Both the position numbers and the translations under genes were made by a program. The notes beneath the pieces are model-generated. The model saw nothing but the letters and a program-made list of their open reading frames with translations. It was not told where the DNA came from and made no database searches. From Flavobacteriaceae bacterium (GTDB lineage: Bacteria; Bacteroidota; Bacteroidia; Flavobacteriales; Flavobacteriaceae), in the NCBI GenBank assembly GCA_015490835.1, contig WFXA01000222.1:1-60670 (forward strand): a stretch of DNA of 60,670 bases, in the 5' to 3' direction. Shown one piece after another: positions 16,827-40,019 of the stretch (position 1 is the first letter of the stretch; each line of letters starts with the position of its first letter).

Positions 16827-18653
16827 ATGACAGAATTAGCAGGAATTATAATTTTAGGTATAGTAGCACAATGGATAGCTTGGCGGTTTAAAATACCGGC
16901 TATTTTACCGCTTATAATAATAGGCTTATTGGTAGGACCTCTTGCCACCGAATTTTTTACGGCAGACGGAAGCAAAATAATTGAACCGGTTTGGAATGGT
17001 AAAGAGGGGCTTTTTGCGGGAGAAACATTGTACTATTTTGTTTCATTGGCTATTAGTATTATTCTTTTTGAAGGAGGATTAACTTTAAAATTGGATGAGG
17101 TTAAAAATGTAGGTTCAGTCATTAGTAGGTTAATAACACTGGGATCTGCCATTACTTTTTTTGGAGCAGCAGTAGCCGCACATTATATTTTTGATCTTAG
17201 ATGGGATATATCCTTTTTGTTTTCGGCACTTATAATTGTTACCGGACCTACTGTTATCACACCTATCTTGAGAAATATTCCGCTAAAAAAAGATGTTTCG
17301 GCAATACTAAAATGGGAAGGAATTTTAATTGACCCGATAGGTGCTCTTGTAGCGGTATTGGTGTTTGAGTTTATTAGTATAGAGGGTGGAGGAGAGTTTA
17401 CTAAAACCGCCTTAATAGAGTTTGGAAAAATAGTTCTTTTTGGTTTTACAATAGGTTTTACAATTGCACACGGATTAAACTATGCGATGAATAAAAAATG
17501 GATTCCGCATTATTTGTTAAATGTATCGGCTCTGGCATCGGTGCTGGGAGTTTTTGTACTTTCAGATATTTTTGCTCATGAGTCCGGCTTGTTGGCTGTT
17601 GTTATTATGGGAATGGTTATGGGAAATTCCAACAGCAAACACATTAAAGACATTTTATATTTTAAAGAGTCATTAAGCGTATTGCTCATCTCAATTCTTT
17701 TTATCCTGCTTGCCGCCAATATTAATATGAAAGATATATGGTTGGTTTATAACTGGAAAACAGCCTTGCTTTTTGTTATTATAGTTTTTGCTATAAGACC
17801 GCTTGGAGTTTTCTTAAGCACTATAAAATCTCATTTAAAAATCAACGAAAAATTATTTATTAGTTGGGTCGGTCCCAGAGGAATTGTAGCAGCAGGAATA
17901 GCCTCTCTTTTCGGATTAAAATTAGCAGAAAAAGGTGTCTCGGGAGCAGAGTACATTACACCTTTGGTTTTTATGGTTGTGCTGGGAACCGTATTGTTAA
18001 ATGCAACTACCGCACGAATGTTTGCTAAAATAGCCGGTGTATTTTTAAAAAAATCTGAAGGTATTTTAATCATTGGAGCTTCTGAAGTGTCCAGAATTAT
18101 TGCAAAATATCTTCAAAATAACGGCAGGCACGTAGTCTTGATAGATAGCAACCCGGACAATATTATTAAAACAAAAGAGCTGGATATTGAGGCAATAAAT
18201 GCTAATGTATATTCAGACTCTCTGGAGGATAATATCGAGTTAAACGATATGGGCTACCTCTTAGCCCTAACAGCAAATCCGGATATAAATAAGTATGCTG
18301 TTGATAAGTTTAAAGACCAGTTTGGAGAAAATGGAGCTTACCGGTTAGTCTCTGTTGAAGAAATAACAGATAATCAAAATAACCCGAAAGACGGACTTTT
18401 TTCGCACACAGACGATTATGATTCAATTGCCAAAACAGCACACGAACACCCCAATATTTATGAAATAGAAATACAAAACAAAGAGCATTACAAAAAACTA
18501 ATAGATATTACCGAAAAAGACAAAGATATTATTCCGCTATTCCTAAAAAATGCAAATGGAGAGTTTGAAATTATCACCTCTTTTAATAAAGATATAAATA
18601 TCGAAAACGGTCGGAAATTGGTTTTACTAGGGAAACATATTCCTAAGGAATAA
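16827..18653 (+). CDS. CPA1/NhaP-type cation:proton antiporter with a C-terminal RCK/TrkA-N-like domain
   Basis: ILFEGGL, VTGPTVI, WEGILIDP, GPRGIVAA motifs, many TM helices, soluble IIGA...VLIDSN tail. Confidence 0.92.
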   Translation: MTELAGIIILGIVAQWIAWRFKIPAILPLIIIGLLVGPLATEFFTADGSKIIEPVWNGKEGLFAGETLYYFVSLAISIILFEGGLTLKLDEVKNVGSVISRLITLGSAITFFGAAVAAHYIFDLRWDISFLFSALIIVTGPTVITPILRNIPLKKDVSAILKWEGILIDPIGALVAVLVFEFISIEGGGEFTKTALIEFGKIVLFGFTIGFTIAHGLNYAMNKKWIPHYLLNVSALASVLGVFVLSDIFAHESGLLAVVIMGMVMGNSNSKHIKDILYFKESLSVLLISILFILLAANINMKDIWLVYNWKTALLFVIIVFAIRPLGVFLSTIKSHLKINEKLFISWVGPRGIVAAGIASLFGLKLAEKGVSGAEYITPLVFMVVLGTVLLNATTARMFAKIAGVFLKKSEGILIIGASEVSRIIAKYLQNNGRHVVLIDSNPDNIIKTKELDIEAINANVYSDSLEDNIELNDMGYLLALTANPDINKYAVDKFKDQFGENGAYRLVSVEEITDNQNNPKDGLFSHTDDYDSIAKTAHEHPNIYEIEIQNKEHYKKLIDITEKDKDIIPLFLKNANGEFEIITSFNKDINIENGRKLVLLGKHIPKE

Positions 18654-18672: not shown

Positions 18673-18993
18673 TCACCCTTTCCAGTATTGAGGTTTGGTT
18701 TCTTCAGAATGTTGATTCCAATAGTCTTGAGTTACTTTACGCCCGTCAAAAGTCTTTAATTTTCTTCCAAAAACCCAAATAGTAGGGTTAAAAACCATAT
18801 CGGTTACGGCAACGGTATAAAGTTGAAGCTCTTCTTCAGTCTTTCTTTTTTCTTCAACAATAATTACCTCAAAACCATTATGCTCTAATAATTTTTTTAA
18901 AAAGTTTTTTCGTTCTTCGGTTACGTTTTTCTCCACAAATGTGACGCGTTGATCACCAATGCTTCCAAATAAATGTTTACCTGCTAATCCCAT
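18673..18993 (-). CDS. Hypothetical 106-aa soluble protein, last gene of the kor-nuo cluster
   Basis: Same strand as nuoN and 49 bp downstream of it; no TM segment; no family recognised. Confidence 0.8.
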   Translation of the reverse strand: MGLAGKHLFGSIGDQRVTFVEKNVTEERKNFLKKLLEHNGFEVIIVEEKRKTEEELQLYTVAVTDMVFNPTIWVFGRKLKTFDGRKVTQDYWNQHSEETKPQYWKG

Positions 18994-19042
18994 AGCGCAT
19001 TAAATTACAAATTATAAATCACAAATCTTATTGGATGTTGTT

Positions 19043-20470
19043 CTACATCAAATTTTTACTTAACTCAAAAATATATTCATACAACGGACTATACAGTCCC
19101 AAGACTAAAATACTTAAAACAGTAAGCACAAGACCTATTTTCATATACAATTTACTGTTAAAATGAGGGATGGCATATTCGCTAGTTCTTAAAAACATCG
19201 CCCGCACCACCAGTAAATAATAATACAACGAGATGGTTACGTTTACTACAGCTAAGAAAACCAATAAATAATATCCTTTGCCGGCAGCCGCCGTAAAGAG
19301 AAAGAATTTACCAAAAAACCCGGCTACAGGAGGGATTCCTGCAAGTGAAAAGAGGGCTAACATCATAACCAAACTCAGTTTAGGGTTGGTGCGATAAAGA
19401 CCGTCATAGTCAGAGATATTTTCTTTTCCGGTTTGTAAGGAAATGGCTTGTACCACACCAAAAGCGGCTAAGTTTGAAAACACATAAATAAGCACAAAAT
19501 AAATTACCGTAGCTACTCCCAGTTGCTCTCCGTTGATAATTCCTAATAAAATAAAACCGGCTTGAGCGATAGATGAAAAAGCTAAGAAGCGTTTTAAATT
19601 ATTTTGCCTTAAAGCAAATAAATTCCCTATAAACATAGTAGTTAACGCTAAAATATATACCAAGTTTTCCCAAATATGCAATAACGGTCTTAAAACGGTA
19701 AAGAGTAAAATCATTAAAATAAAAACAGCCGCCCCTTTTGATATTACCGAGAGATAAGAAGCCACAGAAATAGGAGCTCCTTCATATACATCGGCAGTCC
19801 AAAAATGAAATGGAACCAATGAAATTTTAAATGCCAAACCAGAAAACACCACCACCATTCCCAAAATAGATAAATGGGATGAGGTTATTGTTTGCATAAT
19901 ATCATTAAAGTAGATAGAACCGCCGGCAATATAAAGTATGGAAATACCAAATAAGGCTACTCCAGACGCTAAGGCTGCTGAAAGAATTAGTTTTATTCCT
20001 GCTTCACTTGATTTTCTCTTAGCCGTTTCATAAGCGGCTAATGCAGCAACAGGAAGAGTAGAAAGTTCTAAACCTATAAAGAACATTAAAAAATCACCTG
20101 CAGAAACCATAAAATACATACCTAACAATGAGGAAAAGAGAAGGACAAAAAACTCAGTGCCCCGTTGATGTTCAACAATTTTTTCCTGAAGCCAATCTGC
20201 AGATTGGAGCAACAAGATAAAAACACCAATGTTTAAAACGCTCTTAAAGAAGTGTATGAGTCCGGTGGTGCGAAACATTCCTCCAAAAATACTTCCTTCT
20301 TCCATCAAGAATAATCCTACGGCTGTATGAATACCAAATAGAAAAACAGCAAAGTGAACTAGGTTGCCTTTTTTGTTTTTAGAAATAAATACCTCTACTA
20401 TTAATAATAACAGGATAATACTTAGAAGTAGTATTTCTTGACGCATTAATAAAAAACTGTTCCAATCCAT
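19043..20470 (-). CDS. nuoN: Complex I antiporter-like subunit N
   Basis: GLELS, EAGIK, FKISLVPFHFWTADVYEGAP, KRFLAFSSIAQAG, SLAGIPPVAGFFGKF. Confidence 0.95.
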   Translation of the reverse strand: MDWNSFLLMRQEILLLSIILLLLIVEVFISKNKKGNLVHFAVFLFGIHTAVGLFLMEEGSIFGGMFRTTGLIHFFKSVLNIGVFILLLQSADWLQEKIVEHQRGTEFFVLLFSSLLGMYFMVSAGDFLMFFIGLELSTLPVAALAAYETAKRKSSEAGIKLILSAALASGVALFGISILYIAGGSIYFNDIMQTITSSHLSILGMVVVFSGLAFKISLVPFHFWTADVYEGAPISVASYLSVISKGAAVFILMILLFTVLRPLLHIWENLVYILALTTMFIGNLFALRQNNLKRFLAFSSIAQAGFILLGIINGEQLGVATVIYFVLIYVFSNLAAFGVVQAISLQTGKENISDYDGLYRTNPKLSLVMMLALFSLAGIPPVAGFFGKFFLFTAAAGKGYYLLVFLAVVNVTISLYYYLLVVRAMFLRTSEYAIPHFNSKLYMKIGLVLTVLSILVLGLYSPLYEYIFELSKNLM

Positions 20471-20482
20471 TTTTTAATTTTT

Positions 20483-21970
20483 TTATATCAACCCTTTGAT
20501 AAACGGTTGTAAACTCTCTAATATCATATCGCTTAGCCATAAAGGAGCAACCCCCATTCCTATAATTGGAATAAGCAACAGCACGATTCCGGTTTTTTCA
20601 TACCAAGTTACTCGTTGAAGTGTTAGGTATTTTTTGTTTTTAACAGGACCCATCAGCATAATTCCCACTACTCGTAAAATATAAACAGCTGTCACAACAA
20701 TTACTGAAACAGAAATTACTGTGGCAATACGGTGAAAAAGATCTTCGTGTTGAAATGCTCCAACAAAAATATTCATTTCTGCAACAAACCCACTAAAACC
20801 GGGAAGACCCAATGAAGCCAATCCGACAATGACATACGTAGCCGAAATAACAGGAATTACTTTTAACAAGCCTCCTAATTCAGTGATGTCTCGAGTTCCG
20901 GTTCTTCCGTAAATCATACCAATTAATGCAAAGAAAAGAGCCGTCATCAATCCGTGTGATAACGATTGTAAAATAGCTCCGTTCCAAGCGGTTTTGTTCA
21001 GCATTAACAAAGCAAACAACACCAATCCTAAGTGACTTACCGAAGAATACGCATTGATGTATTTTAAATCTTTCTGCTTTATGGCACCAAAAGCACCATA
21101 AATAACTCCAATAGCAGCCAGAACAATAAAAAAGTTAGACCACGTTAATGCACCTTCGGGAAGTAGAAACATTGCAACTCTAAAGACACCATATCCTCCG
21201 AGCTTCATTAAAACCCCTGCGTGGAGCATAGAAACGGCTGTTGGTGCAGAAGCGTGACCGTCGGGAGACCACGTATGAAAGGGAAACAAGGCACTTAATA
21301 CGGCAAACCCTATAAACACCAATGGGAAGAAAAGTTTTTGAGCCTCAAAAGGAATGTTTACTTGTGCAATTTCTAAAATATTAAAAGTAAGCGCACCACC
21401 GTCTGTATTGGAGTTAAAATAAATACCCAAAATTCCTACCAATAACACAGCCGAAGCACCCATTAGCATTAGTGTTAATTTCATTGCCGAATATTCACGA
21501 GGACCGGTACCCCAAATTCCAATAAGAAGATACATTGGGATTACGGCTATTTCATAAAAAACAAACATCGTAAACAAATCTAATGAGATAAAGAAACCGT
21601 AAACTCCGATAGAAAGCACCAAGAGCGATATAAAAAACTCTTTGGGAAGTTCTTTCATTTTCCAAGATATGAACACACCAGCTAAAACAACGATGGAAGT
21701 AAGTAACAGTAAAGCTACTGAAATACCATCTACACCAACATTATAATGGATGTTAAAAGTTTTAAACCACACAGCATCTTTGGTAAAAACCATGATGTCT
21801 TGGTTGATTTCGCGTTCCCTAAAATAAGCAAAAACCAAATTTATAGCCATTCCTAACTGAACCAAACTACCTACCATAGAAATAATACGGGCTTGTTTTA
21901 AGCCTTTAATAAAAACCAACACCACTATAGTAATAATTGGGACAACGATAAAAAGCGTTAAAATATCCAT
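20483..21970 (-). CDS. nuoM: Complex I antiporter-like subunit M
   Basis: GVDGIS, FYEIAVIPMY, PFHTWSPDGHASAPT, MKLGGYG, AYSSVSHLG, GLPGFSGFVAE. Confidence 0.95.
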   Translation of the reverse strand: MDILTLFIVVPIITIVVLVFIKGLKQARIISMVGSLVQLGMAINLVFAYFREREINQDIMVFTKDAVWFKTFNIHYNVGVDGISVALLLLTSIVVLAGVFISWKMKELPKEFFISLLVLSIGVYGFFISLDLFTMFVFYEIAVIPMYLLIGIWGTGPREYSAMKLTLMLMGASAVLLVGILGIYFNSNTDGGALTFNILEIAQVNIPFEAQKLFFPLVFIGFAVLSALFPFHTWSPDGHASAPTAVSMLHAGVLMKLGGYGVFRVAMFLLPEGALTWSNFFIVLAAIGVIYGAFGAIKQKDLKYINAYSSVSHLGLVLFALLMLNKTAWNGAILQSLSHGLMTALFFALIGMIYGRTGTRDITELGGLLKVIPVISATYVIVGLASLGLPGFSGFVAEMNIFVGAFQHEDLFHRIATVISVSVIVVTAVYILRVVGIMLMGPVKNKKYLTLQRVTWYEKTGIVLLLIPIIGMGVAPLWLSDMILESLQPFIKGLI

Positions 21971-22019
21971 ACGTTATTTGTTTTTATTATAACCCGAAAA
22001 CATTGGGGAATATATGTCA

Positions 22020-23939
22020 TTATTCTGTCCAGAAATAAATAAAAATCATCACCAATACCACGACACCACCTACAAATGCTAGTGCATAATCTTGTAATTT
22101 ACCAGATTGTATTCCTTTTATTTTTTCCGAGGTAAATACGGTTTTATTTCCTATTTGATTCATCGTGCCATCTACTACTTTTTTATCAAAAAGAGCTACC
22201 GAAGCTGCCACACCGTTAAACAATATTTTTTTGGTAATAAAAAGGTATATTTCATCAAAATAGAATTTGTGATATGCCCATTTGTAAAACACACCAAATC
22301 GTTTTGCATAGGTGTCGGCAAGATTGTTTTCTTTCTTATAAAAAACCCAAGCTAGGACAATTCCAATTATTCCTACAGTAACAGCAATTGCCGCTAACGG
22401 ATAATTTAAATGAGCTTCAAAACCTTTTCCATCAGGAGTTACAAATTCACTGAACGGAATAAATCCTACGACCACACTTAACACACCTAAAATCATTAAC
22501 GGAACAGTCATAGACGCGGGTGATTCGTGGGGTGGATGGTCGTATTGCTTCTCTTTACCCCAAAAGATTCCGAAGTAAATTCTAAACATATAAAATGCAG
22601 TAAGCCCGGCTACAAAAACGCCTATGTAATATAGCAGTTGATTGTTTTCAAAGGCAGCAACTAATATTTCGTCTTTACTCCAAAAACCTGCGAAAGGAGG
22701 GATTCCTGCTATAGCCAAAGCAGCAATAAGGAAAGTAATATTTGTAATGGGGAGGTTTTTTCGCAATCCACCCATATCTTTTAAATAGTTGCTGTGAACG
22801 GCATGGATAACAGATCCTGCACCCAAGAACAACAAGGCTTTGAACATGGCGTGTGTAAACAAATGGAACATTGAAGCCATATAACCCACTCCTTCAAGTC
22901 CGTCATAACCGGAAACACCCAAAGCCATCATCATATAGCCCAGCTGTGACATGGTAGAGAATGCTAATACGCGTTTAATATCAGTTTGTGTAATGGCAAT
23001 TACTGCTGCAAACAGGGACGAAATCCCTCCCACATAAGCCACAATTGATAATGCAAAACCTTCTTCTACAAAATAAAACATAGGGAATAACCGAGCCACC
23101 AAATACACTCCGGCAACCACCATAGTAGCTGCATGAATTAATGCCGAAACAGGTGTAGGACCTTCCATGGCATCGGGTAGCCAAATATGAAAAGGCATCA
23201 TAGCAGATTTTCCGGCACCTCCCACAAAGATTAAGAGCAGCCCCCACGTGATGACAGAAAGACCCATAAACGAAGTAGATGCCCAATTTAAAATAGAACT
23301 TCCTTCGGGATTATTTAGCGTTTCAAAATCAAATGTTCCGGTGTAATACCCCATAATTAATATCCCGATTAAAAAGCCTAAATCGGCAAAACGGGTAACA
23401 ATAAATGCTTTTTTGGCAGCAGCAATAGCTGATGGTTTGGTGTAGTAATATCCTATTAATAAGAAAGAAGAAACACCCACAAGCTCCCAAAAAATATAAA
23501 TTTGAAATAGATTAGTAGAAAGCACCAGCCCAAACATAGAAAAGGTAAACAAACTTAAAAAAGCAAAAAACTTAGTATAACCACCATCTCCTTTCATATA
23601 TCCTCGGCTATAAATATGCACCATTAATGATATCGTTGAAACCACAACCAACATCATTACCGAGATTGCATCAATGTACAAACCCATATCAATAGATAGA
23701 GTGTCTGTAAAATTCATCCATACATGACGGTCAATAATAGGTTTATAAACACCATTTACTTTACCGGGGACAAAGAAGTATTGATAAGCGGTGTAGTAGG
23801 AGAGAACAGTCGAAACCAACAAACCAAACACACCAATATAACCGGAAACAGACGGTTTGATTCGTTTGTAATTTAATCCAAGCAGTAGAAAAACTGCTAA
23901 TGGAATGAATGGGATTAAGTAAATATAACGAATGTCCAT
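22020..23939 (-). CDS. nuoL: Complex I antiporter-like subunit L
   Basis: FWELVG, AFIVTRFAD, GKSA.MPFHIWLPDAMEGPTPVSALIHAATMV, THAMFKALLF, FWSKDEIL. Confidence 0.96.
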   Translation of the reverse strand: MDIRYIYLIPFIPLAVFLLLGLNYKRIKPSVSGYIGVFGLLVSTVLSYYTAYQYFFVPGKVNGVYKPIIDRHVWMNFTDTLSIDMGLYIDAISVMMLVVVSTISLMVHIYSRGYMKGDGGYTKFFAFLSLFTFSMFGLVLSTNLFQIYIFWELVGVSSFLLIGYYYTKPSAIAAAKKAFIVTRFADLGFLIGILIMGYYTGTFDFETLNNPEGSSILNWASTSFMGLSVITWGLLLIFVGGAGKSAMMPFHIWLPDAMEGPTPVSALIHAATMVVAGVYLVARLFPMFYFVEEGFALSIVAYVGGISSLFAAVIAITQTDIKRVLAFSTMSQLGYMMMALGVSGYDGLEGVGYMASMFHLFTHAMFKALLFLGAGSVIHAVHSNYLKDMGGLRKNLPITNITFLIAALAIAGIPPFAGFWSKDEILVAAFENNQLLYYIGVFVAGLTAFYMFRIYFGIFWGKEKQYDHPPHESPASMTVPLMILGVLSVVVGFIPFSEFVTPDGKGFEAHLNYPLAAIAVTVGIIGIVLAWVFYKKENNLADTYAKRFGVFYKWAYHKFYFDEIYLFITKKILFNGVAASVALFDKKVVDGTMNQIGNKTVFTSEKIKGIQSGKLQDYALAFVGGVVVLVMIFIYFWTE

Positions 23940-23953
23940 TTGTATATTATTTA

Positions 23954-24271
23954 TTAATATTTCATTGTTTCAGTTGCATCTACCTCTACAGAGCCTATTT
24001 GTCTGTATAGGTTTATTATTATAGCTATAGCTAAAGCAGTTTCGGCAGCAGCTACAGCAATGATAAAAATTGAAAAAATTACTCCCTGTAATGCATCGGG
24101 ATATAAGTATTTATTGATAATTACAAAATTTACTACCGAAGCATTCATAATTAATTCAACCGAAATTAATATCGAAATAAGATTCTTTCGGGTAATAAAG
24201 CCATACACACCAATAAAAAACAAAAGGGTTGTTAGGGTTAATATTTCATAAATACTTATTCCGGCAATCAT
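23954..24271 (-). CDS. nuoK: Complex I subunit K
   Basis: RKNLI...SVELI and AVAAAETA motifs; three TM helices. Confidence 0.95.
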   Translation of the reverse strand: MIAGISIYEILTLTTLLFFIGVYGFITRKNLISILISVELIMNASVVNFVIINKYLYPDALQGVIFSIFIIAVAAAETALAIAIIINLYRQIGSVEVDATETMKY

Positions 24272-24284
24272 AATTTATTATTTT

Positions 24285-24785
24285 TTATGTTTTCTTTCCT
24301 TTTGCAATTACAATAGCTCCTATCATTGCAGCTAATAACAACACCGAAATCACCTCAAACGGCAATACAAATCCTCCGTCCCCATAGCTCAATAGTTTTT
24401 CTCCAATATCGGCTGTTGAGGTTGTTTTATAATTTTCAACAACCGGAAAATCATAGGTATAAATAACTTGCAAAAACACCCCTATTCCTATAGCCGAAAC
24501 AATTGCGGCAACTATTCGTTTGTAGGTTTTAGCCAAGGTTAATTCCAATTCGATATGATGCACTAATAACACTGAAAATATCATTAAAACAATTACACCG
24601 CCTCCATAAACCGTAAGTTGAATGGCGGCTAAAAAATTGTAATCTATTAAAAAGAAAATACCGGCTATACCAACTAGTACAAACAATAAGTAAATTACAG
24701 ACCGCATCATTTTACGACTGTTTACAGCTGCAATAGCAAAAGCAATCATACTAAAAGCAAGGGTGTAAAAAATATATTTTTCCAT
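24285..24785 (-). CDS. nuoJ: Complex I subunit J
   Basis: FLAAIQLTVYGGGVIVL and LPFEVISVLLLAAMIGAI motifs. Confidence 0.95.
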   Translation of the reverse strand: MEKYIFYTLAFSMIAFAIAAVNSRKMMRSVIYLLFVLVGIAGIFFLIDYNFLAAIQLTVYGGGVIVLMIFSVLLVHHIELELTLAKTYKRIVAAIVSAIGIGVFLQVIYTYDFPVVENYKTTSTADIGEKLLSYGDGGFVLPFEVISVLLLAAMIGAIVIAKGKKT

Positions 24786-24789
24786 AATA

Positions 24790-25266
24790 TTATTCTTCTA
24801 CTCCGTCCATTAATTTGGATCCGGGTTGGTTTAGCACTTTTGTTAAATAAGACCTGTCATATACAGCGTTTTCATAATTTTGAGCCCATACAATAGCATC
24901 GGTCGGGCAGGCTTCAATACAAAGTCCACACATAGTACAAAGCCCTAAATGATAAATATGTTTGTCAATTTGTTTTTTCTTTTTTCCGGTTTCGGGGTTT
25001 ACTTTTCTGTCCCAGATAATTTCAATGCTTCCGTTAGGGCAAGCAATTTCACATTTTTGACATCCCGTACATCGATGTTCGTTATTTTCGTTATGGGGCA
25101 TCACTACTTCTCCTCTAAATCGTTCAAACATTTTTAGGGTTTCTCGATTGTCGGGGTATTGTTGGGTAATTGCTCCTTTTCTTGAATGTAAAAAAACCTT
25201 ACCGGTTACACTCATTCCGGTGAGCAATGTTTTTATTCCGTTGAATATGTTTGAAAAGTATCCCAT
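24790..25266 (-). CDS. nuoI: Complex I subunit I (2x[4Fe-4S])
   Basis: TQQYP, RFRG, CTGCQKCEIACP and CTMCGLCIEACP. Start moved to ATG 25266 (MGYFSN), just after the nuoH stop. Confidence 0.93.
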   Translation of the reverse strand: MGYFSNIFNGIKTLLTGMSVTGKVFLHSRKGAITQQYPDNRETLKMFERFRGEVVMPHNENNEHRCTGCQKCEIACPNGSIEIIWDRKVNPETGKKKKQIDKHIYHLGLCTMCGLCIEACPTDAIVWAQNYENAVYDRSYLTKVLNQPGSKLMDGVEE

Positions 25267-25271
25267 ATTTT

Positions 25272-26318
25272 TTATAACTGAATTGTAAGATTTAACCAAA
25301 CAATTAATGCCATTAATACAATATTTACTAAATTAATAGGAAGCAGGTATTTCCATTCTAACGTTAATAATTGATCTACGCGTAATCGCGGAAACGTCCA
25401 CCTAAACCACATCATTAATAAGACCAACAGCAAGGTTTTTCCTAAAAACCAAAAGACGCCCAACCAAGGGATGGATTCGGTTATCCCGAAGGGGGAAAGC
25501 CAAGCACCAAAAAAGACGGTTGTAGCAATGGCAGAGATGATGAACATATTAATAAACTCGGCTAGGAAAAAGTAAGCGAATTTCATTCCTGAATATTCAG
25601 TATGAAAACCGGCGCCCAATTCAGATTCAGCTTCTACCATATCAAACGGAGCTCTGTTTGTTTCGGCAGTTCCGGCAATCATATAAATCATAAAAGCAAT
25701 GATAGCGGGAATGTGTCCTTGAACGATAAGCCAGCCGTTTTTTTGTACTTCAACTATTTCAGATAGCTGAAGCGAACTGGTTAACAAGATCATGGTGAGT
25801 AATGATAGTCCAACAGAGAGTTCATAGCTTATGGTTTGAACACCGCTACGCATAGCACCAATGAGAGAAAATTTATTATTACTGCTCCATCCGCCTAACA
25901 AAATACCGATTACACCAATGGATGAGATGGCGATTAAAAAGAAGATACCAATATTTATATCAAAGGCTTGTAACTCTTGGGTAAACGGAAAAACAGACAA
26001 AGCCATTAATGCCGATATAATCACAAAATAGGGAGCTAAGTTGTAAAGAAATTTATCGGCTCTATCTGTACCGGTTAATTCTTTTGAAACCAATTTTAAG
26101 GCATCTGCCATAGTTTGTAAAAGCCCTTGAAATCCCACACGATTAGGACCAATACGTAATTGAAACCAAGCGGCAACACGCCTTTCCAACAGCACTAAAT
26201 ACAATCCGGCAACAGCAAAAATGGCAAGATATACCAAAGCAATTAAAACCATTTCGGTAATGCTTGTCGCTGTTTCAGACATAAAACTCAACAGCCACTG
26301 ATGAATGCTTTTTGTCAT
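25272..26318 (-). CDS. nuoH: Complex I subunit H
   Basis: LERRV..WFQLRIGPNRVG, ETNRAPFDMVEAESEL..GFHTEYSG, PRLRVDQL. Confidence 0.96.
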   Translation of the reverse strand: MTKSIHQWLLSFMSETATSITEMVLIALVYLAIFAVAGLYLVLLERRVAAWFQLRIGPNRVGFQGLLQTMADALKLVSKELTGTDRADKFLYNLAPYFVIISALMALSVFPFTQELQAFDINIGIFFLIAISSIGVIGILLGGWSSNNKFSLIGAMRSGVQTISYELSVGLSLLTMILLTSSLQLSEIVEVQKNGWLIVQGHIPAIIAFMIYMIAGTAETNRAPFDMVEAESELGAGFHTEYSGMKFAYFFLAEFINMFIISAIATTVFFGAWLSPFGITESIPWLGVFWFLGKTLLLVLLMMWFRWTFPRLRVDQLLTLEWKYLLPINLVNIVLMALIVWLNLTIQL

Positions 26319-26402
26319 ATTAGTTTATTTGTATATTAGTTAATCAGTTAATTAGACTTTTTATTCTATTGTTTTTTATATTATACTCTTCTTGCCTTAA
26401 AT

Positions 26403-27545
26403 CTATCTGTCAATATCCGGCACAACAATATCCAGTGTTGCCATAGTTGCCACTAAATCTCCTATTTTTCCTCCAACAGCAATGTGATTTAATAGCGAAA
26501 TATTTGAAAACCCAGGGGATCTAAATTTTACTCGATACGGGTTTTTTGTTCCCGTACTTACTATATAAACCCCTAATTCTCCTCTAGCGGTTTCTACTTT
26601 TTGATAATATTCTCCTTTAGGTAGTTTTATTACTGTGTTAGTCGCCACTTTGTAATCGCCTTCGGGAATATTATCTATAAGCTGCTCAATAATAGAAAGT
26701 GACTCCCACATTTCTTGAATTCGTACTTGGTATCTCGCCAAGGAGTCGCCCTCGGTTTTAAGTGCTTCATTAAAGGTTACTTTATCTAATGCACTGTAAG
26801 GATGATGCTTTCTTACATCACATGAATATCCCGAACCCCGTGCAACCGGTCCCGATGCGCCAAACGAAATAGCATCTTCTTTGCTTAATATCCCAACTCC
26901 TTTCATTCTCTTCTGAAAAATAATATTTCCGGTTAACAAGCGGTCATATTCAGGAATTTTGGTTTTAAAATGAGCAACAAACTCTTTGGTTCTTTTTACA
27001 AAGTTGGGATGAATATCCCACATTAAACCTCCCGGAATATTATAATTCATCGTAAGCCTTGCTCCACACGTTTCTTCAAAAATATCATTAATCATCTCTC
27101 GATCTCTAAATCCGTAAAAATAAGTGGTAAGTGCTCCTACATCCATTCCCATTACACCCCACCAAAGACAGTGGGATGCGATTCTTGTTAGTTCACCAAT
27201 GATGGTTCTAATTACTTTTACGCGATCAGGAACTTCTAATTGAAGTGCTTTTTCTACAGTTAAACAAACCGCCTCATTGTTAATATGGGAAGAAAGGTAG
27301 TCCATCCGGTCTGTGAGATGAACTATTTGTTGATAGCTGTTTCTTTCACACATTTTTTCAATAGAACGATGAATGTATCCCAAATCCGGCTCTACTTTTT
27401 TTATAATTTCGCCGTCAATGGTTAATAAAAGACGCAATACTCCGTGGGTAGCCGGGTGTTGAGGACCCATATTAACAAAGTATTCTTCAGATTTGAAGTT
27501 GATATTGGTGGCTGTTGGTGCTATTTTTTCGGCTTCCGTCTTCAT
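26403..27545 (-). CDS. nuoD: Complex I subunit D (quinone-binding)
   Basis: NMGPQHPATHGVLRL, GYIHRSIEK, DRMDY, ETARGELG, C-terminal DIDR; no Ni-binding CxxC pairs. Confidence 0.95.
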   Translation of the reverse strand: MKTEAEKIAPTATNINFKSEEYFVNMGPQHPATHGVLRLLLTIDGEIIKKVEPDLGYIHRSIEKMCERNSYQQIVHLTDRMDYLSSHINNEAVCLTVEKALQLEVPDRVKVIRTIIGELTRIASHCLWWGVMGMDVGALTTYFYGFRDREMINDIFEETCGARLTMNYNIPGGLMWDIHPNFVKRTKEFVAHFKTKIPEYDRLLTGNIIFQKRMKGVGILSKEDAISFGASGPVARGSGYSCDVRKHHPYSALDKVTFNEALKTEGDSLARYQVRIQEMWESLSIIEQLIDNIPEGDYKVATNTVIKLPKGEYYQKVETARGELGVYIVSTGTKNPYRVKFRSPGFSNISLLNHIAVGGKIGDLVATMATLDIVVPDIDR

Positions 27546-27573
27546 TGTTTTGTTATCTACATATAGTCGTTTG

Positions 27574-28149
27574 TTATTTTATTACCATATTTACTTCGTC
27601 AACATAATCTTTTCTTAGCGGGTATCCTTCCCATTCTTCTGTAAGAAATAAATATTTTAAATTGGGGTGATTATTAAATTTTATTCCGAAGAAATCAAAT
27701 ACTTCACGTTCGTGAAATTCAGCAGTTTTCCAGATATCACATACTGAGTCAAACACAGGATTTTCCCTGTCTTCTGTATTCACTTTAACTACTAGTTGAT
27801 GTCTGTAAACAGTAGATTCTAAGTGATAAACGACTCCTAATTCTTTTCCCCAATCCATTCCTGTTAGACAGTATAAATAATCAAATTGGGTTTTGGGATT
27901 GTTTTTTAGTTGTTTCATTAACGAATGAAGGTGCTCCGGTTTTACCAAAATGGTAAGGAATTCGGAATCCTCTTCGGTAAAAGATAATAAACTTGGATTG
28001 ATACCTTCTTTTGCAGTTATTTTTTCTACATTCTTTTCTGTTGAAAGATCTGAAGACTCTTGGTTTTCCTCAACAACTACAGAAGCGATGGTAACTTCCG
28101 GATTGGGAAACCAACTACCTATTAACTCTTGTAATTCGTTGTTGTTCAT
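27574..28149 (-). CDS. nuoC: Complex I subunit C
   Basis: LTGMDW, VVYHL, AEFHEREVFDFFGIKFNNHP, GYPLRKDY; not fused to D. Confidence 0.95.
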   Translation of the reverse strand: MNNNELQELIGSWFPNPEVTIASVVVEENQESSDLSTEKNVEKITAKEGINPSLLSFTEEDSEFLTILVKPEHLHSLMKQLKNNPKTQFDYLYCLTGMDWGKELGVVYHLESTVYRHQLVVKVNTEDRENPVFDSVCDIWKTAEFHEREVFDFFGIKFNNHPNLKYLFLTEEWEGYPLRKDYVDEVNMVIK

Positions 28150-28181
28150 AATTTAATTTTTCTTTTGTTTTCAGGTTTCTG

Positions 28182-28778
28182 TTATTTCCCTTCATCAAAA
28201 CCGTCAATAGGGTTCTTTTTATGTTTCATGTTTTCGGTTCGAATCTTTTCTTGAAGCATAAGCATTCCTTCCAGTAATGATTCCGGTCTTGGAGGACAGC
28301 CGGGCACATATACATCAACAGGAATTACGTGGTCTGCTCCTTTTACTACCGAATACGAATTGTAAAAGAAAGGACCTCCCGAAATTGCACAGGCTCCCAT
28401 GGCAATAACATATTTGGGTTCTGCCATTTGATCGTATAATCGCCGTAAAACAGGAGCCATTTTGTTTACGATGGTTCCGGCAATAATAATAAGATCTGCT
28501 TGTCTGGGAGACGGTCGAGCCACTTCAAATCCAAATCGAGAATAATCATGTCGTGACGCTCCTGTTTGCATCATTTCTATAGCACAACAACTAGTGCCAA
28601 AATAAAGTGACCAAAGTGAATTGGAACGCCCCCAGTTTATCACTTTGTCTAAGCTTGTTACAACGATGTTAGCTCCGTTTCCGGCAGGTAATACTTTTCC
28701 CGGAAAGTCATCTGGAACCGGTTGCTGAAACCCTTCGGGTTTTACTTGTGTAATAAAACTTTTTTTATTTATTCCCAT
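28182..28778 (-). CDS. nuoB: Complex I subunit B (cluster N2)
   Basis: [33 protein letters not shown]. Start likely ATG 28778, overlapping the nuoA end. Confidence 0.95.
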
Positions 28779-29119
28779 TTTAATGCTCCTTTTTTCCAAG
28801 CGTATAATAATCCTAAGCCTAAGATAAACAGAAAGATTATAATTTCTATAAAGGCAATACTCCCCACATCCTTAAACACAACTGCCCAAGGCACTAAAAA
28901 AGCAACTTCTATATCAAAGATTAAAAATAAAATAGCAAATAAATAATATCCTACCTTAAACTGAACCCATGTAGGGCCAATGGTTTTCATTCCGCTTTCA
29001 TACGGTTCACGCTTTTGCGGATTATCCGATTTATGAGAGATTAAACCGGATAAAAAATTAGCACCGGCAACCAGTACAATACCGGCAATTAAAAATACAA
29101 TGATAGCTTCTGATCCCAT
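28769..29119 (-). CDS. nuoA: Complex I subunit A
   Basis: [30 protein letters not shown]. Confidence 0.95.
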
Positions 29120-29132
29120 TCCTTAAAATTAA

Positions 29133-30146
29133 TTAATCAACAACATAGGTTTCTCCTGAAAAAAGCAAATCGTCCACTTTAGAAAAACTAGACCTTGATT
29201 TTACTTCTTCGGTTAAAGCGTCTTCTCTTTCTTCCAATGTAACGTCTTCATAGCTTCTAATAATCCCTGTTACCAGAGGATATTCCAGACGGATAAGCAT
29301 TTGGTGTAGCGTAGGGTCTTTTTCCTTGGCATCGTGTATGAGAATGTCTTCTTCGGTTATTCCGTTTTCACCTATAGTCACCACCTCTATTTTTAAATCA
29401 TTTAACACCAGCCCTTTGTCTTTTTCTTTTCCGAAAATCATAGGCTCGCCATGTTCAACAAATAATTGTTTGTCTGCTCGTACTGCTTTATCAGTAAACT
29501 GAGTAAAACAACCATCATTAAAAATCACACAATTTTGAAGCACTTCAATCAAGGAAGTTCCTTTAAATTTTTCGGCTTCAATAAATAATTGTGTCATTTC
29601 TTTAGGTGTGTTACCACCTATTCTGGCAAAAAATCTACTATGAGCTCCAATGGCTAATTCTCCTGGTTGAAATGGGGGTTGTGTATTTCCGTAAGGAGAA
29701 GATTTGGTTTTTTGCCCTACTAACGACGTGGGAGAAAATTGCCCTTTGGTGAGTCCGTAGATTTCGTTATTAAAGAGAATAATATTAAGATCTAAGTTTC
29801 TTCTAAGTACGTGAATAAAATGGTTTCCACCTATTGCCATGGCATCTCCGTCTCCCGTGATTACCCATACACTAAGGTCTGGATTTGCCAATTTTACTCC
29901 TGAAGCAATTGCGGGAGCCCGACCATGGATTCCGTGCATTCCGTAAGTGTCCATATAGTAAGGAAAACGGGAAGAACATCCTATTCCTGAAATAAACACA
30001 ACATCTTCTTTCTTTACGCCCATTTCGGGGAGTGCTTTTTGCATAGACCGTAAAATTACATAGTCATCACAGCCGGGGCACCACCTTACTTCTTGGTCGC
30101 TAACAAAGTCTTTAAAATTATATTTTTTTGCTACTGTATTTTCCAT
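29133..30146 (-). CDS. korB: 2-oxoacid:ferredoxin oxidoreductase beta subunit (TPP-binding)
   Basis: WCPGC, SGIGCSSR, HGRA, TPP motif GDGD...NNEIYGLTKGQ, QNCVIFN. Substrate specificity is not proven. Confidence 0.9.
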   Translation of the reverse strand: MENTVAKKYNFKDFVSDQEVRWCPGCDDYVILRSMQKALPEMGVKKEDVVFISGIGCSSRFPYYMDTYGMHGIHGRAPAIASGVKLANPDLSVWVITGDGDAMAIGGNHFIHVLRRNLDLNIILFNNEIYGLTKGQFSPTSLVGQKTKSSPYGNTQPPFQPGELAIGAHSRFFARIGGNTPKEMTQLFIEAEKFKGTSLIEVLQNCVIFNDGCFTQFTDKAVRADKQLFVEHGEPMIFGKEKDKGLVLNDLKIEVVTIGENGITEEDILIHDAKEKDPTLHQMLIRLEYPLVTGIIRSYEDVTLEEREDALTEEVKSRSSFSKVDDLLFSGETYVVD

Positions 30147-30148
30147 AA

Positions 30149-32005
30149 TTATTGTAAAAGGTGTTTAAATTTCTCAATCAACTCATTGTTTCCAAAAGGT
30201 AATCCTTGTACTTTATTGAATTGAACAAAGTTGTAGTTGTTGAAATTAATTTTTAATACTTTGGCAAACTGTCCGTAATTGAGTTCGCAAACAACTATTT
30301 TTTTAAATCGTTTTAATAAATCTTCTGTGTTTTTTGGAAGTGGATTTATATAATTAAAATGAGCGAATCCAACGTTGTCATATCCGGCTTCATTCATTTC
30401 TTTTACTGCTGTGTGTAGTGAGCCATAAGTGCCTCCCCAACCTATAACCAGCAAATCACCTTCTTGAGCAAATTCCGGTTCAATTTCAGGAATAAAGTTT
30501 TGAACCCGCTTTACTTTTTCGGCTCTTATTTTGACCATATACTCATGATTTTCGGGAACATAAGATACATTTCCTGTTACTTTATCTTTTTCCAAACCAC
30601 CAACCCGATGTTCTAAACCGGGAGTTCCGGGTATAGCCCAATCTCTAGCTAAGGTTTCGTCATCTCTATTATAAGGATGCCAGCTTTCATTAGCTTCTTT
30701 AATAATACGGTTCTTAATTGTTGGCATATCTTCTACGGTTTTTATTTTCCAAGGAGCTGAACCGTTGGCAATATATCCGTCTGTAAGTAAAACAACAGGA
30801 GTCATGTGTTCCAATGCTAGTTTTGCAGCAATAAAGGCGTAATCGAAACAATTAGCTGGCGTACTTGCCGCAATAACTATTACCGGACTTTCACCGTTTC
30901 TTCCGTACATAGCTTGTAACAAATCTGATTGTTCGGTTTTTGTAGGGAGTCCGGTTGAGGGTCCGCCTCGTTGAACATTTACTACTACTAAGGGTAATTC
31001 TACCATCATTGCGAGTCCCAATGCTTCTCCTTTCAGTGCCAATCCCGGACCTGAAGTTGTAGTGATTGCCAGATCACCAGCAAAAGAAGCCCCAATAGAG
31101 GAGGTTATTCCGGCGATTTCATCTTCCGCTTGAAAAGCTTTTACACCAAAATGTTTGTGCTTAACCATCTCGTGAAGAATATCGGTAGCAGGAGTAATAG
31201 GATAAGAACCTAAAAAGAGTTCTAAGCCTGATTTTTCGGCGGCAGCCAAGAACCCCCATGCCGTTGCGGTATTTCCCATGATAATACGATACGTTCCTTT
31301 AGCCATTTTAGCTGGTGAGATTGTATATGTATTTGGGATAAGTTCTAAGGTTTCTGCAAAATAATAACCGGCATTTAATACCTTTGTATTTGCTTCAATT
31401 ATTTGAGGTTTTGATTTAAACTTTTTATGAAAAAAATCAATAGTATAATCCCTAGAACGGTCATACATCCAGTAAACCATTCCGAGGGCAAACATATTTT
31501 TGCTTCGGGTGATACTTTTATTATCTAGTCCCTCAACATCTTTTAACGCCTCTTTGGTAAGTGAAGTCATAGCAACTTCAATCACACGATAATTTTCTAA
31601 AGAACCATCTTCAAGCGGATTGGTTTCGTACAACGCTTTTTCAAGATTTTTTTTGGTAAAAGCATCGGTATCAACAATAATGGTATGCCCTGGTTTAACC
31701 GCACCAATATTTGTTTTTAATCCGGCAGGATTCATAGCAACTAATAGGTCAACATTATCACCGGGAGTGCTTATCTCTACACTTCCTATATGAACTTGAA
31801 AACCGGAAACACCATATAAGCTACCTTGAGGAGCTCTAATTTCTGAAGGGTAATTAGGGAATGTCGCCACATCATTACCAAACATGGCAGAGGTGTCTGT
31901 AAATTGTGTTCCGGTTAGTTGCATTCCGTCTCCCGAATCACCTACAAACCTAATAACGACAGCATCAATTACTTCTGGCTGTTGTTTTGTTTTAGTTGAA
32001 CTCAT
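30149..32005 (-). CDS. korA: 2-oxoacid:ferredoxin oxidoreductase alpha subunit (gamma-alpha fusion)
   Basis: GDSGDGMQLTG gamma domain, YPITP, QAEDEIA, TTTSGPG, QRGGPSTGLPT. Confidence 0.9.
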   Translation of the reverse strand: MSSTKTKQQPEVIDAVVIRFVGDSGDGMQLTGTQFTDTSAMFGNDVATFPNYPSEIRAPQGSLYGVSGFQVHIGSVEISTPGDNVDLLVAMNPAGLKTNIGAVKPGHTIIVDTDAFTKKNLEKALYETNPLEDGSLENYRVIEVAMTSLTKEALKDVEGLDNKSITRSKNMFALGMVYWMYDRSRDYTIDFFHKKFKSKPQIIEANTKVLNAGYYFAETLELIPNTYTISPAKMAKGTYRIIMGNTATAWGFLAAAEKSGLELFLGSYPITPATDILHEMVKHKHFGVKAFQAEDEIAGITSSIGASFAGDLAITTTSGPGLALKGEALGLAMMVELPLVVVNVQRGGPSTGLPTKTEQSDLLQAMYGRNGESPVIVIAASTPANCFDYAFIAAKLALEHMTPVVLLTDGYIANGSAPWKIKTVEDMPTIKNRIIKEANESWHPYNRDDETLARDWAIPGTPGLEHRVGGLEKDKVTGNVSYVPENHEYMVKIRAEKVKRVQNFIPEIEPEFAQEGDLLVIGWGGTYGSLHTAVKEMNEAGYDNVGFAHFNYINPLPKNTEDLLKRFKKIVVCELNYGQFAKVLKINFNNYNFVQFNKVQGLPFGNNELIEKFKHLLQ

Positions 32006-32092
32006 AATTTTTTGAAAAATTTCTTTAAATTTAGGAAATTATTTAATATAAAAATAAAAATCCAAATGTATTTTAACAATTTCAATAAAATT

Positions 32093-32106
32093 ATGACGTT
32101 TGTCAC
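32093..32106. promoter_or_regulatory. Crp/Fnr-like palindrome TGAC-N4-GTCA in the divergent korA/ferredoxin intergenic region
   Basis: aTGACgtttGTCAc fits the TGA-N6-TCA core of Crp/Fnr-family sites and sits in an otherwise very AT-rich spacer. Confidence 0.55.
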
Positions 32107-32159
32107 TTTATTTAAAAAAATAATTTATAGTTTAGCTTATTAATTTAAAATATTTTACC

Positions 32160-32510
32160 ATGGCAATAATAATCACAGATGAGTGTATAAACTGCGACGC
32201 TTGTGTTGCTGAATGTCCTAACAATGCTATTTATGAGCCAGATCAAGAATGGTCTTATGCTGAAGGAACAGAACTTTCCGGAATGGTAACCCTTCCTAAT
32301 GGAGAAGAAGTTGATGCTGATGCAATTAACGAACCTTTTTCCGACGAGTTTTATTTTATAGTAACCGACAAGTGTACCGAATGTAAAGGATTTCATGACG
32401 AACCTCAATGTGCCTCTGTGTGTCCGGTAGATTGTTGTGTTCCTGATGAAAACCATGTGGAGACGGAAGAACAATTACTGGCTAAAAAGGCGTGGTTACA
32501 CAACGAATAA
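32160..32510 (+). CDS. 2x[4Fe-4S] ferredoxin, YfhL/Alvin-type
   Basis: CINCDACVAECP and CTECKGFHDEPQCASVCP (CxxC-x8-CxxxCP insertion); strongly D/E-rich. Confidence 0.93.
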   Translation: MAIIITDECINCDACVAECPNNAIYEPDQEWSYAEGTELSGMVTLPNGEEVDADAINEPFSDEFYFIVTDKCTECKGFHDEPQCASVCPVDCCVPDENHVETEEQLLAKKAWLHNE

Positions 32511-32551: not shown

Positions 32552-33451
32552 GGTAATGTCCTAAACCGGCATTTTTAAAAAATGACTAAAATTAAATGTT
32601 GATTATCAACAAATTATAAAATGAATAAGTCTCTTAATGGAGCCTTGTTCTATTTCTTTGAAATATTAAAATTCGTTAGGAGCTGTAAAAACTAGGTTTC
32701 TTTACACCTTATGTCCTAAATTGGCGCTTTAAAAAACCATGAATTGTTCGAAGTGTAATTCTTCAAATTATATTAAGAAGGGTTTACGAAATAATAAACA
32801 ACGGTTTTATTGTAAAGATTGTAAAAAATATTTTCAATCAAGTTATAGTTATAAGGCTTATAAAGCAGGAATAAATTCACTATTAGTAAGTTTATTAAAA
32901 GAAGGCTGTAGTGTTAGGGGAATTTCAAGAGTATTAAAAATTTCTAAGGATACTGTTTTATCAAGAATTCTTAAAATTAGTAAACAGATTAAGAATCCAT
33001 ATTTCAATAAGTTTGGTTGTAAGTTTGAGATTGATGAAATTTGGAGCTTTATTGGAAACAAAACAAATGTTACTTGGATTACTTACGTTATAGAAAGAGA
33101 AAGCAAAAATGTCATTGATTTCTTTGTTGGCAAAAAAACAAAAAAAACAATTAGACCACTCATTCATAAAGTATTATTACTTGAACCAAATAGAATTTAT
33201 ACAGATAAATTAAATATTTACCCTTCACTTATTCCAAAAGAAATTCGTATACAATTTCAATATTGCACCAACAAAATTGAAAGAATGAATTTAACATTAC
33301 GTACACATATTAAAAGATTAAGCAGGAAAACGATTTGTTTTTCGAGAGATAAAAAATATCTTGAAGCACATTTACGCATCTACTTTTGGGGATAGTGCCT
33401 GAAAAGCTACCCCAATTTATTTTTAACTTACACACTTTTTAGGATGGTGCC
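32552..33451 (+). mobile_element. IS1-family insertion sequence (approximate ends)
   Basis: Left end GGTAATGTCCTAAA and right end (reverse complement) GGCACCATCCTAAA form an imperfect inverted repeat around the transposase. No target-site duplication seen. Confidence 0.7.
32739..33395 (+). CDS. IS1-family transposase (Zn finger, HTH and DDE in one frame)
   Basis: CSKC...RFYCKDC, GCSVRGISRVL (HTH), EIDEIWSF, IYTD, TNKIERMNLTLRTHIKRLSRKTICFSR. Confidence 0.92.
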   Translation: MNCSKCNSSNYIKKGLRNNKQRFYCKDCKKYFQSSYSYKAYKAGINSLLVSLLKEGCSVRGISRVLKISKDTVLSRILKISKQIKNPYFNKFGCKFEIDEIWSFIGNKTNVTWITYVIERESKNVIDFFVGKKTKKTIRPLIHKVLLLEPNRIYTDKLNIYPSLIPKEIRIQFQYCTNKIERMNLTLRTHIKRLSRKTICFSRDKKYLEAHLRIYFWG

Positions 33452-33716
33452 GGGCATTTACCAAAATCACTTCAAAATCGTCTTCCAAAACATTAAAAAC
33501 GGGTTTCCAGTAAACTCTTGTACTCTCCATAGCTACGTGTGTTACTTTTTGGCTTTTGCACCAATCTCTTAAATCTGTCAATGAACTTGTGTAGGCTCCA
33601 AATTCACGAGTCTCGTACTCGTTATTGCTACTACGAACTGTTGCTACTATGATGTCTTTATGTACATCTATGCCACAGCCCACTTTTATTACCTGTGTGT
33701 ATTCTATTGCTGCCAT
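33452..33716 (-). pseudogene. Truncated IS110-family transposase (N-terminal DEDD domain only)
   Basis: CGIDVHKD, VAMEST(R)VYWKPVFNVLE, LVNARH, after which the frame enters the IS1 end and stops at 33423. Confidence 0.9.
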
Positions 33717-39994: not shown

Positions 39995-40019
39995 ATCAAA
40001 GAAAAGAAAATATAACGAT

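Follow-up and report, generated by a model that had tools for sequence, protein, structure and literature searches.

A conserved gene block of a 2-oxoacid:ferredoxin oxidoreductase, a ferredoxin and a headless complex I in Flavobacteriaceae, a likely ferredoxin:menaquinone oxidoreductase

The window analyzed here is the whole stretch of 60,670 nucleotides at positions 1 to 60,670 of contig WFXA01000222.1, from the assembly GCA_015490835.1 of a Flavobacteriaceae bacterium. Its subject is a gene block at positions 18673 to 32510 that encodes a 2-oxoacid:ferredoxin oxidoreductase (KorAB), an 11-subunit ("headless") complex I without NuoE, NuoF and NuoG, the product of a small gene, orf106, and a ferredoxin (fdx). 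The genes lie on the minus strand in the order korA-korB-nuoABCDHIJKLMN-orf106, and fdx is divergent from korA across a spacer of 154 bp. All 15 open reading frames (ORFs) were found at the positions and in the families given by an original prediction made from the sequence alone, and the layout described there (kor-nuo-orf106 order, gaps of 2 bp and 13 bp around korB, a divergent 2[4Fe-4S] ferredoxin and no nuoEFG) was confirmed. The gaps on the minus strand are 2 bp (korA/korB), 13 bp (korB/nuoA), -10 bp (nuoA/nuoB), 32 bp (nuoB/nuoC), 28 bp (nuoC/nuoD), 84 bp (nuoD/nuoH), 5 bp (nuoH/nuoI), 4 bp (nuoI/nuoJ), 13 bp (nuoJ/nuoK), 14 bp (nuoK/nuoL), 49 bp (nuoL/nuoM), 12 bp (nuoM/nuoN) and 49 bp (nuoN/orf106), reckoning nuoB and nuoI from the ATG starts at 28778 and 25266. 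The 84-bp spacer between nuoD and nuoH is AT-rich and gene-free. Scans of the locus for sigma-70 promoters and terminators gave nothing exceeding shuffled sequences.

The korA gene (30149..32005) encodes the alpha subunit of 618 residues (TIGR03710, score 645 versus a cut-off of 482.75), and korB (29133..30146) the beta subunit of 337 residues, with a GIGCSSR motif (PF02775; TIGR02177 at 243 bits, slightly below the cut-off of 261.9). Together the two proteins give the matches to PF02775, PF01855 and PF01558 of a two-subunit 2-oxoacid:ferredoxin oxidoreductase, with thiamine pyrophosphate and Fe-S motifs. The 11-subunit set of complex I is complete: nuoA (28769..29119; PF00507), nuoB (28182..28778; PF01058, TIGR01957 above cut-off), nuoC (27574..28149; PF00329), which is separate from nuoD (26403..27545; PF00346, NF004739 above cut-off), nuoH (25272..26318; PF00146), nuoI (24790..25266), nuoJ (24285..24785; PF00499), nuoK (23954..24271; PF00420), nuoL (22020..23939; NF005141 above cut-off), nuoM (20483..21970; TIGR01972 above cut-off) and nuoN (19043..20470; TIGR01770 above cut-off), all on the minus strand, as is orf106 (18673..18993). 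The cofactor motifs are intact, namely the quinone-site motifs GPQHP and RxDY in NuoD, the tandem cysteines of cluster N2 in NuoB, and two 4Fe-4S motifs in NuoI with a lysine run (GKKKK) in between. The open frames and intact motifs rule out a pseudogene block. A hydrogenase reading of NuoD was likewise rejected, because the CxxC pairs that hold nickel are absent and this genome encodes its NiFe hydrogenase on a different contig, together with a separate small subunit. On the plus strand, fdx (32160..32510) encodes a YfhL-type 2[4Fe-4S] ferredoxin (NF033683, 95 versus a cut-off of 86 bits).

The linkage of these genes was surveyed in three sets: 10 Flavobacteriaceae loci fetched out of 12 genomes with this NuoD type, 80 loci gathered with NuoL (a set that overlaps our G-numbered genomes, and in which loci truncated at a contig end were counted as untestable), and a phylum sample of 400 genomes. 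The divergent fdx followed by korA-korB-nuoA was present in 10 of the 10 Flavobacteriaceae loci. In 52 of the 61 testable cases among the 80 loci, korB precedes nuoA by no more than 600 bp (seven of the nine exceptions have a fused NuoCD), and the divergent fdx was found in 47 of 47. This recurrence argues that the layout is not due to chance, and the survey of kor-nuo-fdx synteny in Bacteroidota that the original prediction had proposed as a check thus showed a conserved linkage. Among the 19 phylum genomes that bear orf106, korAB stands head to tail with nuoA in seven, divergently in two and elsewhere in ten (family f19); the enzymes with adjacent korAB (9/19, from four families) form one clade in a NuoB+NuoD+NuoH tree, with a support of 0.999. 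A KorA orthologue was detected in all 23 orf106-bearing genomes tested, and KorA is missing from 29 of the 31 Flavobacteriaceae that lack this NuoD. Many carriers are cultured Flavobacteriaceae, including Lutibacter maritimus DSM 24450 and Salinimicrobium xinjiangense DSM 19287. In some relatives the nuo genes are set apart by long inserts: 6.8 kb separates nuoH from nuoI in locus L073, and inserts of 400-1000 bp occur in L024, L014 and L110. An rnf cluster adjoins the nuo-orf106 operon of Mariniflexile aquimaris (L171), divergent from nuoA and with kor not adjacent, and another lies downstream of the operon in L103. An apparent KorB-NuoA fusion at a related locus proved to be an artefact of unread bases.

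The spacer between korA and fdx contains a palindromic box, ATGAC-N4-GTCAC (32093..32106), a candidate site of the Crp/Fnr family that resembles the Fnr site TTGAT-N4-ATCAA. The pattern RTGAY-N4-RTCAY was observed in 14 of 16 fdx/korA spacers of a first set and in 39 of 47 spacers of the 80-locus set, and only 5 of 20000 shuffled versions of the present spacer held it. Of 11 spacers ahead of the gene of the pyruvate:ferredoxin oxidoreductase (PFOR), 10 carry a relaxed form of the pattern. The strict box precedes korA in both f27 genomes, occurs near only one of nine f19 operons and was not found near the f59 operons. The genome has 25 box sites, 12 of which lie outside long ORFs (3.4 +/- 1.9 in shuffled sequences); among them are sites ahead of ccoNO, of norC and of genes for a peroxiredoxin, a cytochrome c and a universal stress protein. 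That the palindrome stands ahead of fdx/korA and likewise ahead of the genes for cbb3 oxidase and NO reductase suggests a putative Crp/Fnr regulon for low oxygen, of which the box would be the common site for korAB-nuo, fdx, ccoNO and norC.

On the donor side, KorA is the sole POR_N match in the genome, and the closest relative of KorAB with a solved structure is 6N2N of Magnetococcus marinus. KorA T271 and R346 and KorB R60 align with T227, R303 and R63 of 6N2N, which we take to be the residues that bind 2-oxoglutarate; Sulfolobus enzymes have a lysine at the KorB R60 position. Judging from these positions, the substrate of KorAB is probably 2-oxoglutarate. The fdx protein is acidic, with 27 D/E versus 4 K/R. 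A second ferredoxin, 72% identical to it and probably the housekeeping copy, is encoded on contig C230 (13878-14228; locus L098), where it adjoins acyl-CoA-reductase-like and serC/serA-like genes; a crude motif scan of the genome found these two ferredoxins and no flavodoxin. Of 50 headless loci scored, 46 have the lysine run of NuoI between the cluster motifs; it is absent from the 14-subunit locus L018 and missing in E. coli and Thermus too. In cyanobacterial NDH-1, the corresponding surface docks ferredoxin. The accessible part of a study on that enzyme describes NdhS and cluster N6a as the entry of ferredoxin (PMC6358722).

The gene of PFOR stands beyond fdx in 7 of the 10 Flavobacteriaceae loci and was lost here. 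The match to the nearest relative, G004, ends at position 32517, 7 bp past the fdx stop codon, at insertion sequence remnants: an IS1-family transposase (32739..33395, plus strand; PF03400) occupies the place of PFOR in relatives, followed by an IS110-family transposase fragment (33423..33716, minus strand; PF01548). The last 27 codons of PFOR remain in the middle of contig C62 (G000:C62:2154-2234, G000 being the source genome). With the usual neighbour deleted, KorAB is the enzyme that is left. The sucAB genes for the NAD-linked 2-oxoglutarate dehydrogenase are located at 37256-41231 of the window, 4.7 kb from fdx; in the Aquimarina locus L110 they follow orf106 directly, in convergent orientation.

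The union of KorAB, a ferredoxin, a headless complex I and orf106 in one conserved block suggests that the pump is likely to be fed by ferredoxin under low oxygen. We therefore consider it likely, as the gene content indicates, that the block encodes a low-oxygen ferredoxin:menaquinone oxidoreductase fed by KorAB as it oxidizes a 2-oxoacid, probably 2-oxoglutarate. The same enzymes could also run backwards, with an ion gradient driving electrons from menaquinol to ferredoxin for reductive carboxylation by KorAB (and PFOR in relatives) or for ferredoxin-dependent biosynthesis. In favour of this direction, SucAB at 4.7 kb and other E1 dehydrogenases already cover the oxidative step, and the sole NQR2/RnfD match in the genome is NqrB, so that no Rnf was found that would make reduced ferredoxin. 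Yet the carriers are heterotrophic Flavobacteriaceae, several of them also encode Rnf, and energy conservation at low oxygen accords with a box common to the genes of cbb3 oxidase and NO reductase; moreover, electrons must climb steeply, by roughly 0.35-0.4 V, to pass from quinol to ferredoxin. We hold reverse flow to be unlikely on these grounds, even though the closest solved relative of KorAB, that of M. marinus, is described as reductive in the accessible part of its source (PMC11304471).

The residues of the membrane arm were read with positions numbered as in E. coli. Among the charged residues tested, those of NuoL (8/8 pump residues), NuoK (E39 and E77, equivalent to E. coli E36 and E72), NuoH (with the acidic residues of the E-channel), NuoA, NuoJ and NuoN (including E135, K215, K245 and K388) are retained, except that NuoN H305 is replaced by Gln. 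NuoM retains E144, K265 and E407; its poorly conserved D258 is a further exception. The canonical lysine of NuoM transmembrane helix 7 (TM7), K234, which pairs with the TM5 glutamate, is replaced by Leu225. This position is L, I or F in 33 of 33 Bacteroidia headless NuoM sequences, and K in 13 of 13 other loci, in E. coli and in the three solved structures that we compared. Exactly one basic residue has been gained in each of the 33 sequences, either a His in TM8 (His250 here; 22 sequences) or Lys146, six residues past the TM5 Glu (11 sequences); in the 80-locus set, L or I together with the TM8 His was found in 64 of 64 readable NuoM sequences (74 with a match). One gained basic residue in every NuoM looks like compensation for the lost lysine. 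Other clade-specific charge gains (NuoM E111 and R433, NuoN R10 and R288, NuoH E321, NuoL D204) and losses (NuoM 304, NuoN 254, NuoA 57) were also noted.

The uniform replacement of K234 could alternatively mean lost coupling. The membrane arm would then act mainly as a cation/H+ antiporter, or the complex as a sink for ferredoxin electrons with weak coupling, a role suggested for Prevotella. According to the accessible parts of the literature, K234 is essential in E. coli NuoM and its loss abolishes activity (PMC5061711, PMC13073174), E. coli HycC, a doubtful pump, has Leu at the same position (PMC5061711), and an antiport role of the headless enzyme has been raised (PMC6560451). Against this stand the retention of the other tested charged residues apart from NuoN H305, the compensation-like gain of a single basic residue, and the intact quinone-site and Fe-S motifs, which together make an uncoupled arm quite improbable.

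In all 19 phylum matches, and in 62 of 69 testable loci of the 80-locus set, orf106 is the gene directly after nuoN; six of the seven exceptions have a fused NuoCD. The 19 genomes with orf106 are exactly those with the top 19 NuoD matches among the 400, and the next-ranked NuoD matches come from genomes without it. Its position behind nuoN and its confinement to the top NuoD matches mark orf106 as a dedicated partner gene of this enzyme, and from gene position its product is likely either to be bound to the complex as an accessory subunit or to help in its assembly. We found 1318 relatives, the named homologues and nearest titled loci being from Flavobacteriaceae, and no Pfam or NCBIfam family common to more than 4 of 110 members. 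The structure model (pLDDT 86) is a small, soluble alpha/beta domain with a tail, without cysteines or a membrane helix. No sequence match was obtained in the PDB, and no family in fold searches, where Foldseek reached an E of 0.16 at best and VIA-align a Z of 6.1, with small alpha/beta domains that are unrelated; the ESM Atlas returned only Bacteroidota clusters without names. The searches run gave no match in sequence or fold to NdhM, NdhN, NdhO, NdhS, NdhV, Nqo15 or FpoO, and a profile comparison with NuoC was negative. Two longer forms look like read-through or chimeric calls and not like fusions to Nuo subunits, and two long search matches were discarded as repeat proteins. In homologues from families f19 and f59 (L029-L040), the middle loop of orf106 is extended by an insertion of 15-30 residues rich in Pro and Ala.

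It is tempting to go further and to suppose a distinct 12-subunit enzyme of oxygen-respiring Bacteroidota, in which ferredoxin docks on orf106 in place of the NADH head, and NuoM does without the lysine held to be essential for complex I coupling and runs on the relocated His or Lys. Expressed together with KorAB at low oxygen, it would bypass the NADH-yielding step of the tricarboxylic acid cycle; we put this forward as a tentative and rather doubtful extension. If true, the enzyme would be a natural mutant with which models of complex I pumping could be probed.

The ferredoxin-fed reading also depends on whether an NADH-binding head is encoded elsewhere. The genome is 94% complete in 276 contigs and has a single match to PF01512 (the NuoF family), a NuoEF fusion of 551 residues on contig C6 that scores below the NuoF cut-offs, and a single match to PF10588 (the NuoG Fe-S domain), a protein of 911 residues on C199 that scores 798.7 as a formate dehydrogenase (FDH; cut-off 666.25) and below the NuoG cut-off. 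The first has NuoE- and NuoF-like domains and the second NuoG-type Fe-S domains; E. coli NuoE had no tblastn match in the genome, and the NuoF and NuoG queries reached only these two proteins. Their orthologues in relatives stand side by side with fdhD, and both look, from sequence, like parts of an NAD-linked formate dehydrogenase and not like a NuoEFG head. The formate dehydrogenase genes are split here between C6:181-1836 and C199:5600-8335, with unrelated neighbours, and united as fdhD-EF-fdhA in relatives. The search of the whole genome that had been proposed for nuoEFG thus found, at this completeness, only FDH-type matches. Among 23 genomes with the module, a PF01512 match of some kind occurs in 21, as RnfC, as a diaphorase of FDH or hydrogenase type, or as part of a separate E-F-G cluster; it is absent from G149 and G276, both 100% complete. 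Given those two genomes, the nature of the other matches and the finding of 14-subunit-type E, F or G beside the nuo block in 0 of 80 loci, we regard as very improbable a borrowed head in which the NuoEF fusion and NuoG-like front of FDH (or a true NuoEFG in f19 and f59) dock to give an NADH or formate:quinone oxidoreductase with kor as a merely co-regulated neighbour, despite the NuoE-, NuoF- and NuoG-type domains on C6 and C199 and the frequency of PF01512.

A ferredoxin:menaquinone oxidoreductase fed by KorAB would work as follows. A regulator of the Crp/Fnr type would turn on korAB-nuo and the divergent fdx through the common box that we observed. KorAB, whose family is clear and whose substrate is predicted, would convert 2-oxoglutarate and CoA to succinyl-CoA, CO2 and reduced ferredoxin, bypassing SucAB. 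The acidic ferredoxin could dock at the lysine run of NuoI, and electrons would pass through N6a, N6b and N2 to menaquinone. The membrane arm would then pump ions with its NuoM TM5-Glu/TM7-Lys pair replaced. The genome encodes MenF, Na+-NQR, an alternative complex III, aa3 and cbb3 oxidases and the NO reductase cNOR, so the quinol could be oxidized through alternative complex III and the cbb3 oxidase or NO reductase, and NADH can, by gene content, be oxidized via Na+-NQR. The energy drop to menaquinone is larger from ferredoxin than from NADH, which offers a reason for keeping the KorAB path beside SucAB and Na+-NQR. A NiFe hydrogenase (C137:11458-14606) and a polysulfide-reductase-like molybdoenzyme cluster (C265:1-4357) add to the picture of a low-oxygen lifestyle.

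Several observations weigh against such a unit. The synteny is common to kin, so the locus counts are not independent and describe patterns, not statistics. Ten of the 19 phylum genomes (f19) have korAB elsewhere together with a separate NuoEFG cluster, which adjoins a second nuoD in six of the ten, and a stand-alone NuoF above cut-off occurs in both f59 genomes (n=2); the complex may share a head in these families, and the diaphorase parts of formate dehydrogenase could dock on it. Two of the 31 Flavobacteriaceae without this NuoD have korAB without nuo, and at two loci nuo-orf106 lacks an adjacent kor. The box is missing from 8 of 47 korA/fdx spacers and is only modestly above the reversed control genome-wide (25 versus 17 here; 55-107 versus 43-61 in five relatives), and the Fnr-like protein beside the cco cluster, which has N-terminal cysteines, scores 105 against an Fnr cut-off of 228. 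Gut Bacteroidales enzymes have the NuoI lysine run yet no orf106, so orf106 is dispensable in some headless enzymes. Since loss of K234 abolishes activity in E. coli, pumping here may be reduced or different. Loci L182 and L183, from same-genus genomes (G011 and G018), retain korAB (one with fdx) with no nuo genes and no box near korA.

The term "self-contained", which the original prediction had applied to the module, is too strong in view of the f19 genomes and of the two genomes with korAB alone. Its reading as a ferredoxin:menaquinone oxidoreductase was strengthened by the lack of a true NuoEFG, the two complete genomes without a NuoF match, the conserved linkage and the common box, and turned out to be less novel than claimed. 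The parts of the module had been named correctly; the low-oxygen-type box, the loss of the NuoM lysine and the deletion of PFOR had been missed.

Around the block, a CPA1-type cation/H+ antiporter gene with a TrkA-N domain (window 16827-18653) is convergent with orf106 at a distance of 19 bp, and several loci of the same genus also have a similar gene beside the operon. Further away (window 4780-12203) lies a row of several long proteins that look secreted, two of which begin almost alike (YHVGP.QT); a peptidase and a subtilase are encoded downstream of them.

Franke and Deppenmeier (2018) are cited by the papers that treat the headless Bacteroidota enzyme. That enzyme and its proposed ferredoxin donor are already in print in the accessible parts of PMC6560451, PMC11405475 and PMC3362086, and the system is less new than its description as little known implies, ferredoxin input being stated in PMC11405475 and PMC3362086. 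The central idea of a ferredoxin-fed headless enzyme is thus not new, and the points added here are the twelfth gene, the common box and the rewired NuoM. Ferredoxin input to the Bacteroidota enzyme was found in the literature as a proposal and not as a measurement. In our literature search we found neither orf106, nor the linkage of kor to nuo in Flavobacteriaceae, nor the loss of the NuoM lysine in Bacteroidota described, although subscription journals and supplements may hold an account. The accessible part of PMC3144371 states the donor of the 11-subunit complex I as an open question, with no partner protein found, and that of the L. profundi genome paper labels its enzyme NADH dehydrogenase (PMC5219744). 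The donor question becomes directly testable because donor enzyme, carrier and pump are linked, with a common box, in cultured oxygen-tolerant strains. Supposedly aerobic marine flavobacteria would gain a low-oxygen ferredoxin route where automatic annotation lists an ordinary NADH dehydrogenase, and a whole clade that has lost the TM7 lysine of NuoM, and replaced it in two alternative ways, offers a natural test of the coupling between redox and pumping in complex I.

Among the closest known systems is the headless NDH-1 of gut Bacteroidales (Prevotella, Bacteroides, Phocaeicola), with 10 or 11 genes, which also lacks NuoEFG and, as far as the accessible text goes, has a proposed ferredoxin donor and Na+-NQR for NADH (PMC6560451, PMC11405475). 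It falls in the same large clade (tree support 0.977), and the fused-CD loci examined also lack the NuoM lysine. It differs in its fused NuoCD, whereas here NuoC and NuoD are separate and accompanied by orf106 and by linked korAB and fdx (fused-CD loci: orf106 in 0 of 6 testable, adjacent kor in 0 of 7), and the hosts here are oxygen-respiring Flavobacteriaceae. The 11-subunit NDH-1 of Chlorobi and Ignavibacterium has the same 11 genes, no N-module, a NuoI lysine run and a suggested ferredoxin input (PMC3362086, accessible part). In the separate clade L076-L089, which from the tree and kinship labels appears to be of this type, the NuoM lysine is retained in 12 of 12, and no orf106 or adjacent kor was seen. 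The NDH-1 of cyanobacteria and chloroplasts likewise combines 11 core subunits and a ferredoxin donor with small extra soluble subunits, among them NdhS and NdhO (PMC6358722, accessible part), but its donor is ferredoxin reduced by the photosystem and its NdhD retains the TM7 lysine. In contrast to the present enzyme, in which E, F and G are all missing, complex I of Campylobacter and Helicobacter retains NuoG. This 12-subunit enzyme of microaerophiles is similarly fed by 2-oxoacid oxidation and not by NADH (PMC4453560, PMC3144371), yet uses flavodoxin, as described for Campylobacter in the accessible part of PMC4453560, where the linked carrier here is a 2[4Fe-4S] ferredoxin. Finally, the 2-oxoglutarate:ferredoxin oxidoreductase of M. 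marinus (6N2N) is of the same two-subunit type as KorAB, with the aligned Thr, Arg and Arg positions, and differs in acting in reductive CO2 fixation.

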